Assembly (NCBI GenBank): GCA_013287435.1
Contig: JABDDU010000003.1
Location: 21,685-85,684, forward strand
Source: Verrucomicrobiota bacterium
Lineage (GTDB): Bacteria; Pseudomonadota; Gammaproteobacteria; Coxiellales; Coxiellaceae
Direction: 5' to 3'
DNA length: 64,000 nucleotides
A program made the translations under genes and the position numbers. Shown here in pieces: positions 32,619-45,617 of the stretch (the first letter of the stretch is position 1; the number at the start of each line of letters is the position of its first letter). The notes under the pieces were generated by a model that was not told the DNA's origin, ran no database searches, and saw only the letters and a program-made list of their open reading frames with translations.

Positions 32619-33158
32619 TCATACAGAGCTTGCATTATAAAGCAACACATTCACACTACTACATTTCGGTAACTGTGTGTTTTTATTACTTCGTAAAGGC
32701 ATTACATGCTGTTCAAGCCCAATAATCAACCCAGATTTAATATTTTCCTGTGCAAAATAGGCAGATAGTACATGCTCTGCAGTTTCGATTGATAAATCAC
32801 CCTCCTCTATCACATCCAATAATTCAGCGTGTAAATGATATTTTTCAGCTAATGCGGGTCCAACATGGGAATAAAGAGAATCATACTCATAGCATGAATG
32901 GGTAAATATAATTAACTCAACTTGCAACAACGCAGATAATAACGATGGATGATCGCGAATAGCCATCTCGATTAATTCGAAAAATGAATAACCACTTTTT
33001 TGTGTAAGCATTTCTCGATCTAAATAAGCCTGCGAAAATCTCTGCATATCTTCAAAATAAGGAACATAATCCGCTTTAGGTTTTTGATAGTGTGGATCTG
33101 GATAATGGGAATAAATAAATTTTGACAGGACAATGTTTGTCATAGAGTATTCGCTCAC
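32619..33158 (-). CDS. Hypothetical protein, last gene of the biosynthetic operon; weakly resembles the N-terminal half of a thiolase/KASIII fold without a nucleophile
   Basis: 179 aa. ELIIFTHSCYEYD ... AELLDVIEEGDLSIE resembles the FabH region around the active site, but the Cys is absent. Speculative. Confidence 0.3.
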   Translation of the reverse strand: MSEYSMTNIVLSKFIYSHYPDPHYQKPKADYVPYFEDMQRFSQAYLDREMLTQKSGYSFFELIEMAIRDHPSLLSALLQVELIIFTHSCYEYDSLYSHVGPALAEKYHLHAELLDVIEEGDLSIETAEHVLSAYFAQENIKSGLIIGLEQHVMPLRSNKNTQLPKCSSVNVLLYNASSV

Positions 33159-33204
33159 ACCTTTAAGTCAGCTCAATAATGCGCATTTGAGGTCAGCGTT
33201 TGAT

Positions 33205-34143
33205 TTAATATTGAAACAGCGCCACTGATAGATAAAATCCCATTCCGCAACCCACCATCATATAATAATCTCCTTTTTGTAGACGATTATGTGACAAAGC
33301 TGCTTGTAAATTAATAATATGATCAGAGCAAAATGTGTGACCATAACGCCCGATATTATCTAAATATATTTTTTTTATCGGATATGATAGCTGTTCGGCA
33401 ATTTTTTTCCACGTTGGAATATTAACATTATGCGGTAAAATAAGTGAAATTTGATGGAGTTTTATGGTCGATTTTACCATGGTCTCTAAAATAAGATTCG
33501 ACAGTGACTCAACAAAAATCGCATCAAATTTTCGTATTTCAACATCCGATAAATAAATACCCTTTGAATAACCCGGTAAAAAACGATTACTCACTGATAA
33601 TAAATGATGACCATTACCTGACAGTGAAAACAATGATGCTGTTGCTGCATCACCAACGATAGATGAGCGCGGAACGACGCGTAATTGTGGAGAAAAAGCG
33701 ACTTCACCTGTCAGTACAATGGCAGAATAATGAGTATGATCTGCTAGCAGAACCTGTAAAATCTCCAGTGCTTTAAAATAAGAAACACATTTTTGCATTG
33801 TCATGCTCAACGTGATAACAGCAGGATTAAAAAAATTATCTTTTATTTGTTTCAGCAGCCTATCACCATACGGGCATAAAATAGCAGTGGTACGTACATA
33901 AATAAGATATTTAATACGTGAAATATCACCACAGTCTAACAATAATTTTTTCAGCGGAAATAATAACAATGATTCCAAACTAGCTTGATCATAAATTGGA
34001 ATATTTTTTAAACCGTAAATCTTTCTATAGACAGATAATGTTTCCTTGGGTAAGTGTGTTTCAGTAACGAGATCAGTTACCAAAACGTGTTTTTCAGGAA
34101 TAAATGTTTCAAAAGCATTCAGCGTTAGCATACAGTAACCCAT
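33205..34143 (-). CDS. KASIII (FabH)-like condensing enzyme or acyltransferase
   Basis: Cys in MQKCVSYFKAL, His in ILPHNVN, and GHTFCSD where FabH has GNTSAAS. 312 aa. Confidence 0.65.
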   Translation of the reverse strand: MGYCMLTLNAFETFIPEKHVLVTDLVTETHLPKETLSVYRKIYGLKNIPIYDQASLESLLLFPLKKLLLDCGDISRIKYLIYVRTTAILCPYGDRLLKQIKDNFFNPAVITLSMTMQKCVSYFKALEILQVLLADHTHYSAIVLTGEVAFSPQLRVVPRSSIVGDAATASLFSLSGNGHHLLSVSNRFLPGYSKGIYLSDVEIRKFDAIFVESLSNLILETMVKSTIKLHQISLILPHNVNIPTWKKIAEQLSYPIKKIYLDNIGRYGHTFCSDHIINLQAALSHNRLQKGDYYMMVGCGMGFYLSVALFQY

Positions 34144-35006
34144 TCTGGTTCTAAAAATGGATTGTCAACCAACAGCGTGTTTGGAATTTTTAAAATAGAA
34201 TGGGTTTCATAAAATCGGGTTACCTGATTGATATCATTGATGTGATATTTTAATATATCAGACAATTCATCCAGCAAAGAAAAATCAGATACCGAAGATG
34301 ACAACATAGGTCCCCACAAATCCCAAATCAATATTTCTTGCTTATTTAATAGCGCTAAATCCTGTATTAATCGGTTACGAATGGTAAATAATCCGCGATG
34401 TTGCCTCGAACCAAAACGAACCGGATCTGCATTTTCAAAACGACACATTCGCCACGCATCCGCAGCAGAAATAAATTTTGTGCTCGGCACATCCGTTAAA
34501 TCAAAATCAATTTTTAATTGATAATGATCAATATGAATTCTCATGGTACGCGTATCAACGGAACACCAGCGTTCTTCATTTACATGATAATATTCAACAC
34601 AAAATCCATCTAAAAAAAGCCCAGGAATAAAATAATTAACAAACCCTGAACGTAAACGTGCAGGAATTCCTCGTGAACGCAAAATTGAACACAATAATAA
34701 AGAGGTGTCACGACAAACACCCATCACACGATTTTCAGCTGAACGCTCGACACTGAGTGCACGGGAATCAAATGATATTATTTTTTCTAAAACAGAGCTC
34801 ATATATCTTAAATTTAATTCAGTATATCGGTTGTCTGAAACAGACACTTGAAATAAATTTAAATCAGCATAATGCAAGAACAAATTGTGCGTGTGGGCAC
34901 ATAGTGCCGAAATATTTTTCGGCAGTGTATCATATAAATCAATATAATTTTCAGGATCGGAGAATGGGCTTTGGGTTAAGTAGTATTCCTTAAAGAGAGC
35001 GTTCAT
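34125..35006 (-). CDS. Transglutaminase-like cysteine protease-fold protein
   Basis: MGVCRDTSLLLCSILRSRGIPARLRSGF carries the Cys core motif. It is followed by YYHVNEERWCSVDTR, which supplies His and Asp candidates. Confidence 0.6.
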   Translation of the reverse strand: MNALFKEYYLTQSPFSDPENYIDLYDTLPKNISALCAHTHNLFLHYADLNLFQVSVSDNRYTELNLRYMSSVLEKIISFDSRALSVERSAENRVMGVCRDTSLLLCSILRSRGIPARLRSGFVNYFIPGLFLDGFCVEYYHVNEERWCSVDTRTMRIHIDHYQLKIDFDLTDVPSTKFISAADAWRMCRFENADPVRFGSRQHRGLFTIRNRLIQDLALLNKQEILIWDLWGPMLSSSVSDFSLLDELSDILKYHINDINQVTRFYETHSILKIPNTLLVDNPFLEPEWVTVC

Positions 35007-43758: not shown

Positions 43759-43852
43759 AACACTTCCTCATTAAGGTGAAAGTTAATTACGAAAACATCT
43801 TAATCGTCTTTTTTTAAAATTTATATCCGTGTTTTTGATTTTTTTTAAATTA

Positions 43853-44185
43853 TCAGCCGAAAATAATAGATCCACGTGGCGCTTGTTTTGATCTAGGTTG
43901 AGGTTTGACGTAAGGTTGGGCATAAGTGAAATATAAGAGTTCAACAGATCGCAAATGATTATGTAAATAAATATTAACATTGATTGGAATTTCAGATATT
44001 GCTTTAGCTACGGCTAATAAAAATTCTTCATCAGTTTCTTTTGTTACTGCGAATCGTAATTTATACAGCAATGCTTTATCATCTATCGTTAATTGTGGTT
44101 TTACATACCATTTTTTGCTCAGATCAAAAACACCACCAACCGCTTCTTTAATTTTCTTAAGTACAGTAGCACTGATCATAAACAT
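43853..44185 (-). CDS. Hypothetical small protein in the AT-rich spacer (coding status uncertain)
   Basis: Rests only on a 110-aa ORF that overlaps another 65-aa ORF. No motif recognised. Confidence 0.2.
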   Translation of the reverse strand: MFMISATVLKKIKEAVGGVFDLSKKWYVKPQLTIDDKALLYKLRFAVTKETDEEFLLAVAKAISEIPINVNIYLHNHLRSVELLYFTYAQPYVKPQPRSKQAPRGSIIFG

Positions 44186-44348
44186 TACACACCTATTTTT
44201 CTTTTGATATGAAAAGTTTAATCAGTGCATGTAACGATAATGTGTCAATAAGCGATAGAATTGTAACAAAGTGCTTCAAATCAGTTCGTTTGTTAACGCG
44301 AGAAACTTTAGTTTCAGTTGAAGCACATCACTGCGACTCAAGCTCCCG

Positions 44349-45617
44349 TTACAACAACGGCTGATTTTTTTTAAATTTCATTAAAACAACAACAAAAAAT
44401 AATATCGACGAAACCAGGATTAAATTAATACTCAATGCTTCTGGACTATGTAAATCATGAATTAAAAAAGTAGCCACTAACGGTGATAGTCCACCAAATA
44501 TTCCAAAGCCTAAATTGTACGTCAGTCCTATTGCGCTGTTTCTAACGGCAGTGGGAAATATTTCTGCCAGCGTCACCGGTACAATCGCAACTATAACAGA
44601 CGCTAATATGGCAAAACACAATAAAGCCAGCAACATCATTGCGCCACCAGAATGAATCATAGAATACAGAGGATATGACAATATCAAAAATAAAAAACTC
44701 GCTAAAACAAAGAATAGCTTTCGGCCATATTTATCGGATAAATGGCCAAAAAAAGGAATTAAAGACGAAAAAATAATAATATTAACGGTATTAAAGAGAG
44801 TCGCGTCACGCGGGTTAACTTGCGCCACATGTTCCAAATAAATGGGCATATATAAAAATAGTTGAACAATAATCACTGCGTGTAAAGCAATCATTGAAAG
44901 CCCGCGAAATAAATTCAGGGTGTGATTTTTAAAAACAGTTCTGAGCGGAAAGGATAATTGTTTATGCTCTTCAGATAAACGTTTAAATAAAGGGGTTTCA
45001 ACATTTTTTAACCTGAAATAAATGCCAATAATAAACAGTGAAATGCCGAATAAAAATGCTACGCGCCAACCCCAATCCACCAACGCCTGATGCGAAAGAA
45101 GATTGGTAAATAACATTCCCACGAAGGATGCTAATAAAAGACCGACGTTAACGCCACAGTAGAGCAATCCGGTTAAAAATCCACGACTCTGATTATCTGA
45201 ATATTCGTTCACAAACGTAATTGCGCCCGGTAAATCCCCACCTAATGCAATACCTTGTAATAAACGAAATAGACAAAAAAAGAGTGGCGCTATAATGCCG
45301 ACATCATCATAGGTAGGCATCAAAGCCATCGCGAGCATCGATCCCGCCATGATCGTAATGGTAATTAACAAGCTTTTTCGACGACCATATCGATCACCAA
45401 GGTGACCAAATATAATTCCACCTAATGGTCGAACCAAATAACCCGATGCAAAAAGCGCTAACGTTGATAGCATTCCCGCATAAGGCGATTCTGTTGGAAA
45501 AAATAACCCGGCAAGCGTTGTTGCAAAAAAAATATAAATCACAAAATCATACATTTCTAAAGCGCCGCCGGCACTGGCTAGCGCTAGCAGTGCTCTCGTG
45601 CTTAATTTTTTGTTCAT
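44349..45617 (-). CDS. MFS transporter (metabolite:H+ symporter / ProP-like family)
   Basis: 12-TM pattern with the GHLGDRYGRRKSL motif. The ATG at 45617 is preceded by AGGAG. The 14 upstream codons of the ORF are MITE sequence. Confidence 0.85.
   Translation of the reverse strand: MNKKLSTRALLALASAGGALEMYDFVIYIFFATTLAGLFFPTESPYAGMLSTLALFASGYLVRPLGGIIFGHLGDRYGRRKSLLITITIMAGSMLAMALMPTYDDVGIIAPLFFCLFRLLQGIALGGDLPGAITFVNEYSDNQSRGFLTGLLYCGVNVGLLLASFVGMLFTNLLSHQALVDWGWRVAFLFGISLFIIGIYFRLKNVETPLFKRLSEEHKQLSFPLRTVFKNHTLNLFRGLSMIALHAVIIVQLFLYMPIYLEHVAQVNPRDATLFNTVNIIIFSSLIPFFGHLSDKYGRKLFFVLASFLFLILSYPLYSMIHSGGAMMLLALLCFAILASVIVAIVPVTLAEIFPTAVRNSAIGLTYNLGFGIFGGLSPLVATFLIHDLHSPEALSINLILVSSILFFVVVLMKFKKNQPLL

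Follow-up and report, generated by a model that had tools for sequence, protein, structure and literature searches.

A twelve-gene accessory island in a Coxiellaceae genome as a candidate carrier-protein-dependent pathway without a megasynthase

Carrier-protein pathways that run without a non-ribosomal peptide synthetase (NRPS) or a polyketide synthase (PKS) are easily missed by standard genome mining, and to our knowledge only a handful have been worked out: those for the butirosin side chain, andrimid, closthioamide and the starter units of macrolactams. A further candidate is described here from a 64,000-nucleotide stretch of contig JABDDU010000003.1 (positions 21,685 to 85,684 of the forward strand; assembly GCA_013287435.1, labelled Verrucomicrobiota bacterium and placed by its GTDB lineage in the Coxiellaceae), referred to below as the window. 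Twelve closely packed minus-strand open reading frames (ORFs) of the window's ORF list, at 32619-43758, form an accessory island that, on balance and judged by its sequence, appears to encode a thiotemplated route, independent of NRPS and PKS, to a small, probably exported molecule. An original prediction made from the bare sequence had proposed a carrier-protein-dependent biosynthetic cluster without a megasynthase, and both domain content and conserved gene order bear this out.

The closest described systems share an opening in which an acidic amino acid is loaded on a carrier protein through its side chain and then decarboxylated there, as shown experimentally for butirosin and closthioamide (PMC7183216). 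In butirosin biosynthesis in Bacillus circulans (BtrI/J/K/H) the carrier is free-standing, decarboxylation falls to a pyridoxal-phosphate (PLP) enzyme of the ornithine/diaminopimelate (Orn/DAP) decarboxylase fold, BtrK (L-glutamyl-[BtrI acyl-carrier-protein] decarboxylase), and a papain-fold cysteine enzyme, BtrH, rather than a condensation (C) domain moves the chain onward (PMC2922099, PMC7183216). Closthioamide is assembled by an NRPS-independent thiotemplated route in Ruminiclostridium cellulolyticum (CtaD/E/F/G/J), where an Orn/DAP-fold enzyme turns carrier-bound aspartate into beta-alanine and ignores free aspartate, CtaF being inactive on the latter (PMC7183216), and where the transglutaminase CtaJ works on the carrier-bound chain (PMC7898593). 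The starter cassettes of macrolactams (vicenistatin VinN/L/O/M, as well as fluvirucin and incednine) comprise two stand-alone adenylating enzymes, one acyl carrier protein (ACP) and one PLP decarboxylase. VinN, whose structures are 3WV4, 3WV5 and 3WVN, attaches 3-methylaspartate or aspartate, as a beta-amino acid, to its carrier protein VinL, and the second ligase (IdnL7/VinM) favours the small amino acids Gly, Ala and Ser (PMC11253843).

The island appears to carry an opening of the same kind. By sequence, its 504-residue ligase, its ACP and its decarboxylase are the cassette known from butirosin, closthioamide and vicenistatin, which decarboxylates on the carrier and gives an omega-aminoacyl-S-ACP. 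Among solved relatives the decarboxylase is nearest to BtrK (323 bits over the full length, 37% identity), the best DAP decarboxylase (LysA) reaching 184 bits and ornithine decarboxylases (ODCs) at most 65, so that the LysA/ODC label first given to it has to be replaced by a BtrK-like one. On NCBIfam it stays under the cut-offs of its best model, TIGR03099 (325.3 against 478.45), and of the lysA model TIGR01048 (289 against 298). The best reading of this relationship is that the enzyme's substrate is a carrier-bound rather than a free amino acid. Its gene is followed after 22 nt by that of the ACP, whose serine motif DLQLDSM is invariant in six loci and whose identity is 64-74% in the closer loci.

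The 504-residue enzyme had been taken for an acyl-AMP ligase and is better described as a VinN-type amino-acid:ACP ligase. NRPS adenylation (A) domains resemble it more than fatty acyl-AMP ligases do. Of the solved structures VinN comes closest (3WVN/3WV4; 193 bits, 29% identity), and in the alignment VinN residues D230, the bulky F231 and S299, K330 and R331 correspond to D, Y, T, K and R. In VinN, Asp230 binds the beta-amino group, and a shortening of a loop sets beta-amino-acid enzymes apart (PMC11253843); the loop TECKR, which holds Lys330 and Arg331, is identical in VinN and the 504-residue ligase and lacks one residue that alpha-amino-acid A domains have. The VinN-type substrate residues are invariant in seven homologues, distant variants included. 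The best NCBIfam model is TIGR03098, at 266.6 bits under its cut-off of 592.35. Given the relatedness to BtrK and VinN, the known on-carrier logic and the fit of an Asp/Glu racemase found in one variant locus (L013), the first two steps are quite probably the loading of an acidic amino acid and its on-carrier decarboxylation, leading to beta-alanyl-S-ACP or, if the substrate is glutamate, to 4-aminobutyryl-S-ACP. A decarboxylated building block derived from an amino acid, as first suggested for this locus, is also the best reading of its BtrK- and VinN-like enzymes.

The likeness to each described system has its limits. BtrJ is an ATP-grasp ligase and CtaD an iterative one, whereas the island has two AMP-forming ligases, the VinN-like enzyme standing in the place of BtrJ. 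There is here no aminoglycoside acceptor pathway, BtrO/BtrV monooxygenase or BtrG, and no thioamide synthetase, aldo-keto reductase or p-hydroxybenzoic acid branch of the closthioamide type. The papain-fold enzyme is of the Transglut_core type rather than Pfam BtrH and lacks the catalytic His, which is replaced, unlike in CtaJ with its working Cys-His-Asp triad. Four thiolase-fold proteins and a two-part acyl-CoA dehydrogenase (ACAD) distinguish the island from butirosin, and the cta cluster likewise has no ACAD component and none resembling 3-ketoacyl-ACP synthase III (KASIII). The macrolactam cassettes have in common with it a second ligase that, here by sequence, would favour small amino acids; in the island, however, this ligase is nearer to AlmE and DltA (191 and 164 bits) than to IdnL7 (104), and downstream chemistry would be carried out by KASIII-like, ACAD and transglutaminase-like proteins. 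Because no modular PKS, VinK-type acyltransferase or VinJ-type aminopeptidase was found among the 12 proteins or in the annotated neighbourhood (about 30 of the 35 other window ORFs that reach 200 residues), the cluster is not a macrolactam starter cassette.

No characterised cluster of the same composition was found in the literature or among named proteins, a search in which MIBiG, antiSMASH and cblaster were not covered, and literature on the enzyme combination, on TIGR03098/TIGR03099 and on biosynthetic clusters of Legionellales yielded no characterised equivalent. The original statement that the system matches nothing characterised therefore holds for the composition as a whole and is too strong for the opening steps, which match those of butirosin, closthioamide and vicenistatin. 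For the enzymes that follow, namely KASIII-like proteins with a Cys-His-His set, degenerate partner proteins, a split ACAD and a transglutaminase-like protein devoid of the catalytic His, no described pathway was found as a precedent.

The two KASIII-like enzymes, of 309 and 312 residues, are paralogous (hhalign E 7.5e-57). Aligned with Aquifex and E. coli FabH as references, both keep FabH Cys112 and His244, and at Asn274 all 11 homologues carry a His, giving Cys-His-His. Their scores on FabH models are 35-49 bits (40-49 for the 309-residue enzyme), to be compared with cut-offs of 249-292 (292 for TIGR00747). By sequence, then, neither is a canonical FabH: the Cys-His-Asn triad is missing and the family cut-off is not reached. 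A degenerate relative of the same fold is predicted in the 274-residue protein, whose AlphaFold2 model (pLDDT 78, pTM 0.79) matches StlD, AbyA1, FabH, PqsD and OleA in a Foldseek search of the PDB (E about 5e-9, probability 1.0). In this family the nucleophile position is not consistently a Cys, and counterparts of the His and Asn are missing. The 179-residue protein of the last gene is related in turn to the 274-residue family (hhalign probability 96%, E 4e-9, 142 columns); its gene is present in six loci (L008, L009, L010, L015, L017 and L018) and absent from L011.

The ACAD family flavoenzyme keeps its catalytic Glu, in an MEGT motif, in six loci. Its best matches, all low-scoring, are ACADs with short-chain or polar substrates and acyl- or prolyl-carrier-protein dehydrogenases. 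A route from a prolyl carrier protein to a pyrrole (A enzyme, carrier protein and ACAD) was considered as the core logic and rejected, since the ACAD is kept in L011, which has no 517-residue ligase. The gene adjoins and overlaps that of the 219-residue protein, for which AlphaFold2 gives a confident model (pLDDT 92) with Foldseek matches to FkbI, many ACADs and the heteromeric steroid ACAD Tcur3481-3483. A natural fusion of a 219-type domain to a full ACAD exists in P0149, a 626-residue protein on a 10.4 kb metagenome contig. The 219-residue family is rare: a set of 1.84 billion proteins contains 51 representatives of it, and each of the ten checked came from a metagenome. We propose from the models and gene context that this protein is a partner subunit of the adjacent ACAD.

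Comparison by hhalign of the 179-, 274- and 219-residue families with the KASIII and ACAD families of the same loci was not significant, and their placement is therefore by fold prediction. All three had been listed as unknowns; this stands insofar as Pfam has no match for the 274- and 179-residue proteins, and is superseded by their likely kinship to degenerate thiolase-fold (274 and 179 residues) and ACAD-fold (219 residues) proteins. The modelled folds suggest three pairs of a catalytic and a degenerate protein, namely 309 with 274, 312 with 179, and ACAD with 219 residues. PqsBC is a heterodimeric condensing enzyme with a degenerate partner. The steroid ACADs of the ChsE alpha2beta2 type (Tcur3481-3483) similarly have a catalytic subunit beside a shorter, degenerate protein of the same fold, a likeness drawn here from genes and models. 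In contrast to such heterodimeric systems, the putative partners in the island are much more truncated, the 219-residue protein lacking the N-terminal domain and the 179-residue protein corresponding to half a thiolase fold.

A small MITE-like (miniature inverted-repeat transposable element) sequence is present in two copies with the terminal inverted repeats AATGCGAATTAAGARC. The 412-residue ACAD ORF takes its stop codon and the ~26 codons before it from the 81-nt copy, which sits at the ACAD/ligase junction. The second copy (45630-45819, between amiC and a major facilitator superfamily, MFS, gene) is 190 nt long with 109 extra internal bases and contains the listed ATG of the MFS gene. The element is predicted to form a strong RNA hairpin (-27 kcal/mol, z -3.4). 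It was not found in the homologous loci; the 81-nt copy is a later insertion and not an ancestral part of the cluster.

The transglutaminase-like protein departs from its family in the active site. The original description of a transglutaminase-like Cys-hydrolase fold is right in the Transglut_core domain and the cysteine, C98, which with D151 is invariant in 50 homologues; it does not extend to the canonical catalytic His, whose position is taken by G134 in the window and by G, E or A in other cluster-linked homologues. That His is kept in stand-alone Vibrio and Streptomyces homologues (DH) and in TgpA 6G49 (AHAW). By sequence the protein thus has no complete Cys-His-Asp triad; either of two nearly invariant residues, His45 and Glu138, might act as the base in its stead. 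A sequence search against the PDB gave no match, and a 50-sequence profile retrieved from the PDB only weak ones, to TgpA and one putative cysteine protease. In cluster-type loci the gene always occurs together with an ACP gene. By analogy with papain- and transglutaminase-fold precedents in thiotemplate pathways (AdmF, CtaJ, CtaG and BtrH; PMC7898593, PMC7183216, PMC2922099), we propose an acyl-transfer or release catalyst. In andrimid biosynthesis the transglutaminase fold of AdmF replaces a C domain in a dissociated thiotemplate pathway (PMC7898593, citing Fortin et al. 2007); compared with that description, the protein here differs in the absent canonical His and in having no hybrid NRPS/PKS around it. 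The stand-alone homologues, at 32-38% identity, come from Vibrio tapetis (L002/L003), Streptomyces europaeiscabiei (L004/L005) and a further locus, L012; those of Vibrio and Streptomyces, both cultured, were dropped as relatives of the cluster, not being in comparable clusters.

The second adenylating enzyme, of 517 residues, is closest among solved relatives to AlmE (4OXI, 191 bits), followed by DltA (164) and IdnL7 (104). AlmE is the glycine:carrier-protein ligase of lipopolysaccharide (LPS) modification in Vibrio cholerae, and in DltA and AlmE an Asp-(Leu/Ile) pair and a CGE cysteine restrict the pocket to D-Ala or Gly (PMC11253843). The 517-residue ligase has both the D-(L/I) pair and the CGE cysteine, and its substrate is probably a small amino acid of the Gly or D-Ala type. 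With only one ACP in the cluster, the simplest interpretation would have this ligase acylating the free amine of the ACP-bound intermediate, in the way of VinM and IdnL7 in macrolactam pathways. Alternatively, it may charge that ACP itself. A minimal variant, L011, is without exactly this ligase, the 312-residue KASIII-like enzyme and the 179-residue protein, and their presence or absence together indicates that the three form one optional module.

At least six other contigs carry the twelve genes in the same order, with protein identities of 30-75%, a degree of conservation that chance ORFs would not show. Three are Gammaproteobacteria/Coxiellaceae metagenome-assembled genomes (MAGs; L008 = L016, L009 and L006 = L010) and three are further metagenome contigs (L015, L017 and L018). 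The comparative set is small, the contig profile scan with a 20-sequence alignment having returned four loci and the metagenome scan six. All homologues of the diagnostic cluster proteins come from uncultured organisms. In one Coxiellaceae MAG (L006) the cluster lies between mutL and tex, a chromosomal site other than that in the window. The closest relative (L021, positions 1-12000, set against window 30402-47494) shares the order tsaE-amiC-[...]-uvrB-...-gyrA-serC-aroA-cmk-rpsA and has no cluster between amiC and uvrB; an amino-acid permease, a NAD_binding_9 flavoprotein, an MFS transporter, a helix-turn-helix protein and an aminotransferase occupy this interval instead, which marks the cluster as an accessory insert in a variable region. 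The cluster behaves as an accessory island that is gained and lost.

Variants of the cluster add transport functions. L013 has a resistance-nodulation-division (RND) membrane-fusion protein, an RND pump and the Asp/Glu racemase within the cluster. In L014 a MatE gene lies within the cluster and the transglutaminase-like gene comes first. L011 is a nine-gene version followed by a toxin-antitoxin pair and then an RND pump. Because of these efflux genes the product is probably exported. The toxin-antitoxin pair of L011 (10852-11552), a MazE/PrlF-type antitoxin and a PIN-domain toxin, stands directly after the cluster with overlapping stop and start codons.

Base composition sets the island apart from its surroundings. 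Its guanine-plus-cytosine (GC) fraction is 0.326 against 0.391 in the rest of the window (per-gene Mann-Whitney p = 1.4e-6), in agreement with the AT-richness earlier noted by eye, and in five of five other host contigs measured it lies 6-8 points under that of the flanks. The 12 consecutive ORFs and tight junctions of the original prediction are all where they had been placed, with gaps of 2-46 nt and overlaps of 10-41 nt for the longest-ORF starts. Several real start codons are probably internal to these ORFs: homologues of the decarboxylase measure 417-427 residues and those of the ACAD 366-379, as against 442 and 412 for the window ORFs. Checked by hidden Markov models, the predicted domains were all recovered in Pfam and NCBIfam (ACP_syn_III_C twice, Transglut_core, AMP-binding twice, ACAD, PP-binding and Orn/DAP/Arg decarboxylase). 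The predicted lack of a megasynthase held as well, no condensation, KS-AT (ketosynthase-acyltransferase) or thioesterase domain being found in the cluster by either library; the largest ORF of the whole window is MetH, at 1223 residues, and nothing in it is of megasynthase size. No protein of the cluster reached the cut-off of a housekeeping NCBIfam model, and the PADLOC anti-phage defence models had no match to the cluster. Coordinates of the features are collected in Table 1.

Table 1. Positions of the island genes and adjoining features within the window
Feature	Position	Strand	Family or basis
tRNA-Asn(GTT)	32435..32508	-	between last cluster gene and uvrB; downstream cluster boundary here
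Last gene, 179 aa	32619..33158	-	homologous to N-terminal part of 274-aa protein; no Pfam match
Second KASIII-like enzyme, 312 aa, accessory module	33205..34143	-	Pfam ACP_syn_III_C
Transglutaminase-like papain-fold protein, 293 aa	34125..35006	-	Pfam Transglut_core (PF01841), 29.4 bits (cut-off 23)
AlmE/DltA-like adenylating enzyme, 517 aa, accessory	34990..36543	-	Pfam AMP-binding
KASIII-like enzyme, 309 aa, core component	36546..37475	-	Pfam ACP_syn_III_C + ACP_syn_III
VinN-like adenylating enzyme, 504 aa	37466..38980	-	Pfam AMP-binding
Acyl-CoA/acyl-ACP dehydrogenase family flavoenzyme (ACAD), 412-aa ORF	38997..40235	-	Pfam Acyl-CoA_dh_M + Acyl-CoA_dh_1
Inserted element, 81 nt	38999..39079	.	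16-nt terminal inverted repeats; at ACAD/ligase junction
Truncated ACAD-fold protein, 219 aa	40195..40854	-	predicted beta-barrel + C-terminal helical domain, without N-terminal domain
Degenerate thiolase/KASIII-fold protein, 274 aa	40866..41690	-	AlphaFold2 + Foldseek; no Pfam/NCBIfam match
Free-standing ACP, 89 aa, single carrier protein of the cluster	41680..41949	-	PP-binding, 21.0 bits (cut-off 20.8)
BtrK-type PLP decarboxylase, 442-aa ORF	41972..43300	-	Pfam Orn_Arg_deC_N + Orn_DAP_Arg_deC
First gene, small secreted protein, 157 aa	43285..43758	-	signal peptide, 2 conserved Cys, beta-helix-like repeats
MFS gene	44349-45659, start more likely 45617		ProP-like metabolite:H+ symporter family; host-like GC

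The first gene encodes a small secreted protein whose homologues open the cluster in L008, L009, L010, L011 and L017. The signal peptide, read by eye from the hydrophobic N-terminus in the alignment, ends at ILA, before DD, and the family shares the motif DDxCxVxGFxEPxxxxYDGPTxC. Pfam gave nothing significant for it, with a weak bactofilin-like trace for the L010 homologue (E 0.067). Relative to four homologues (L008-L011) the window protein has a 17-residue insertion that resembles one extra beta-helix-like repeat. The MFS gene further upstream, earlier pointed out for its nearness, is a neighbour and not a component. It was considered as the cluster's exporter and dropped because of its membership in the ProP/metabolite:H+ symporter family, its host-like GC and its absence beside the cluster elsewhere, and for the same reasons it is left outside the system. 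The space separating it from the cluster holds a 110-residue ORF (43853-44185, minus strand) with cluster-like GC (0.33) and no family match, which may not be a real gene; like the MFS gene, this ORF was not found beside the cluster in the other loci compared.

Put together, these proteins outline a possible pathway. The substrate of the VinN-like ligase would be an acidic amino acid, with L-Asp the likeliest and Glu or a substituted Asp as possibilities; adenylated at its side-chain carboxylate, it would be loaded on the ACP, where the BtrK-like PLP enzyme would strip the alpha-carboxylate to leave an omega-aminoacyl-S-ACP (beta-alanyl, or 4-aminobutyryl from Glu). From fold and context, the ACAD, probably as a heteromer with the 219-residue protein, may desaturate the tethered chain, and the 309-residue KASIII-like enzyme, probably with its 274-residue partner, may then make a carbon-carbon bond, the likeliest reaction being a decarboxylative condensation with malonyl-ACP from host fatty-acid synthesis. 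On the same grounds, the accessory trio of the 12-gene version may add or condense a small amino acid. The transglutaminase-like Cys protein would take the chain off the ACP, by transfer to a nucleophile or by release, in the manner of AdmF, CtaJ or BtrH, and the product would leave via neighbouring or embedded transporters. It is tempting to speculate that this product is, for example, a piperidinedione or pyridone derived from beta-alanine and malonate, or an unsaturated omega-amino acyl amide.

Several points weigh against this scheme. At identities of only 29% and 37% to VinN and BtrK, respectively, Asp, Glu and other acidic substrates are not separable. The KASIII-like enzymes, far under every FabH model, could be acyltransferases and not condensing enzymes. 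The transglutaminase-like protein may not be a classical transferase, as its canonical His is absent and a CtaJ mutant in the equivalent residue (H148A) is impaired (PMC7898593). How the second ligase would be served is hard to account for with a single ACP, and the heteromers are proposed from fold, gene order and one fusion. The conserved secreted protein of the first gene is assigned no role, and the adjoining MFS gene is of an importer family, with the composition of the host and no conserved link to the cluster.

Some of these features would also suit other functions. Two FabH-fold enzymes with catalytic Cys and His, in a cluster without an elongating ketosynthase, ketoreductase, dehydratase, enoylreductase or thioesterase, could supply an unusual starter for the type II fatty-acid synthase (FAS) of the host, joining an omega-aminoacyl-S-ACP to malonyl-AcpP to give omega-amino or otherwise head-functionalised membrane fatty acids; lacking dedicated enzymes, the cluster would have to borrow host FAS for chain extension. 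A lipid product had also been raised in the original prediction. This role is nonetheless unlikely, since some variants carry RND and MATE (multidrug and toxic compound extrusion) efflux genes within the cluster, priming would require neither an ACAD nor a papain-fold transferase, and the KASIII-like proteins are remote from true FabH, with the Asn274 to His replacement.

Decoration of the cell envelope is likewise unlikely; here the ACP would pass an aminoacyl or omega-aminoacyl group on to lipid A, LPS or an exopolysaccharide, in the manner of glycylation by AlmEFG, D-alanylation by Dlt or the exosortase-A-associated ligase/decarboxylase pair. In its favour, the 517-residue ligase is nearest to AlmE and DltA, the exosortase-A-associated models TIGR03098 and TIGR03099 are the best NCBIfam models for the 504-residue ligase and the decarboxylase, and the first gene encodes a secreted protein. 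However, neither an AlmG-, DltB- or DltD-type membrane transferase nor an exosortase/PEP-CTERM gene was found in the cluster or its annotated neighbours. With both models scoring far below their cut-offs and this gene context absent from the annotated genes, the cluster is not an exosortase-associated pair. Simple aminoacylation would leave the four thiolase-fold proteins and the ACAD without a function, some variants carry efflux pumps within the cluster, and minimal variant L011 lacks the AlmE/DltA-like ligase altogether.

A free amine made by a LysA/ODC-type decarboxylase and N-acylated by an ACP-bound acyl or ketide chain, itself loaded by a fatty acyl-AMP ligase, is the original prediction taken literally; it would account for a decarboxylase score just below the lysA cut-off, and the transglutaminase-like enzyme could join the amine to the acyl-S-ACP as AdmF and CtaJ do. 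We regard this route as rather improbable, given the decarboxylase's much higher score to BtrK than to any true DAP decarboxylase, the residues that the 504-residue ligase shares with VinN (the Asp binding the amino group, and the shortened loop's K-R pair, which makes room for an acidic substrate) and its greater nearness to NRPS A domains than to fatty acyl-AMP ligases, and the inactivity on free aspartate of CtaF, a relative in the same gene context (PMC7183216). Finally, although every recognisable domain family has housekeeping members too, a chance assembly of primary-metabolism genes (lysine or polyamine synthesis, beta-oxidation, fatty-acid initiation) is scarcely credible for genes that keep their order in at least six other contigs, one at another chromosomal site, reach no housekeeping cut-off, differ in GC from each host measured and are absent at the same locus in the closest relative.

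The flanking genes are housekeeping ones (rpsA, cmk, aroA, serC, gyrA, metH, metF, uvrB, amiC, tsaE, queG, tsaD, mdh and dnaX). The UvrB sequence shares 88% identity with its counterpart in a 'Coxiellaceae bacterium' MAG, the closest relative (L021), and 71% with the one in Coxiella burnetii, which places the host among uncultured Coxiellaceae. The tRNA gene bordering the cluster raised the idea of a tRNA-integrated island, which was dropped: the other loci have no adjoining tRNA, and no direct repeat matching the tRNA end turned up at the far boundary, the repeats met in that search being the unrelated small inverted-repeat element. Further along the window, a 604-residue ORF without a Pfam match (23611-25425, minus strand) occupies a low-GC patch (0.33) between an HMGL-like gene and metH; in the closest relative, uvrB is followed downstream by a GGDEF protein and then the HMGL-like gene, with no metH or metF. 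Another low-GC stretch holds a DDE-family transposase ORF of 546 residues with a TTG start (2618-4258, plus strand), and a bacterial small signal recognition particle RNA gene (60006-60101, plus strand) lies just upstream of dnaX.

The island occurs only in uncultured relatives of Coxiella, whose group is known to live inside cells and is little explored for its natural products. If the thiotemplated reading of the island is taken further, a tentative picture is that of an undescribed class of thiotemplated pathway restricted to uncultured Coxiellaceae-like bacteria. It would be built on a carrier-bound beta-alanine or 4-aminobutyrate unit, with three pairs of an enzyme and its degenerate twin and a release step in which a His-less transglutaminase fold works by a non-canonical mechanism. 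Such a pathway might yield a new nitrogen-containing ketide scaffold, for example an unsaturated omega-amino acyl amide or a pyridone or dihydropyridone derived from beta-alanine, that serves these bacteria in their association with hosts or amoebae. Its small size, 11 kb, makes the island a realistic target for synthesis and heterologous expression. A product, if found, would extend the rules by which such pathways are mined and would reveal what a transglutaminase fold without its His, and half-size thiolase and ACAD partners, are capable of.

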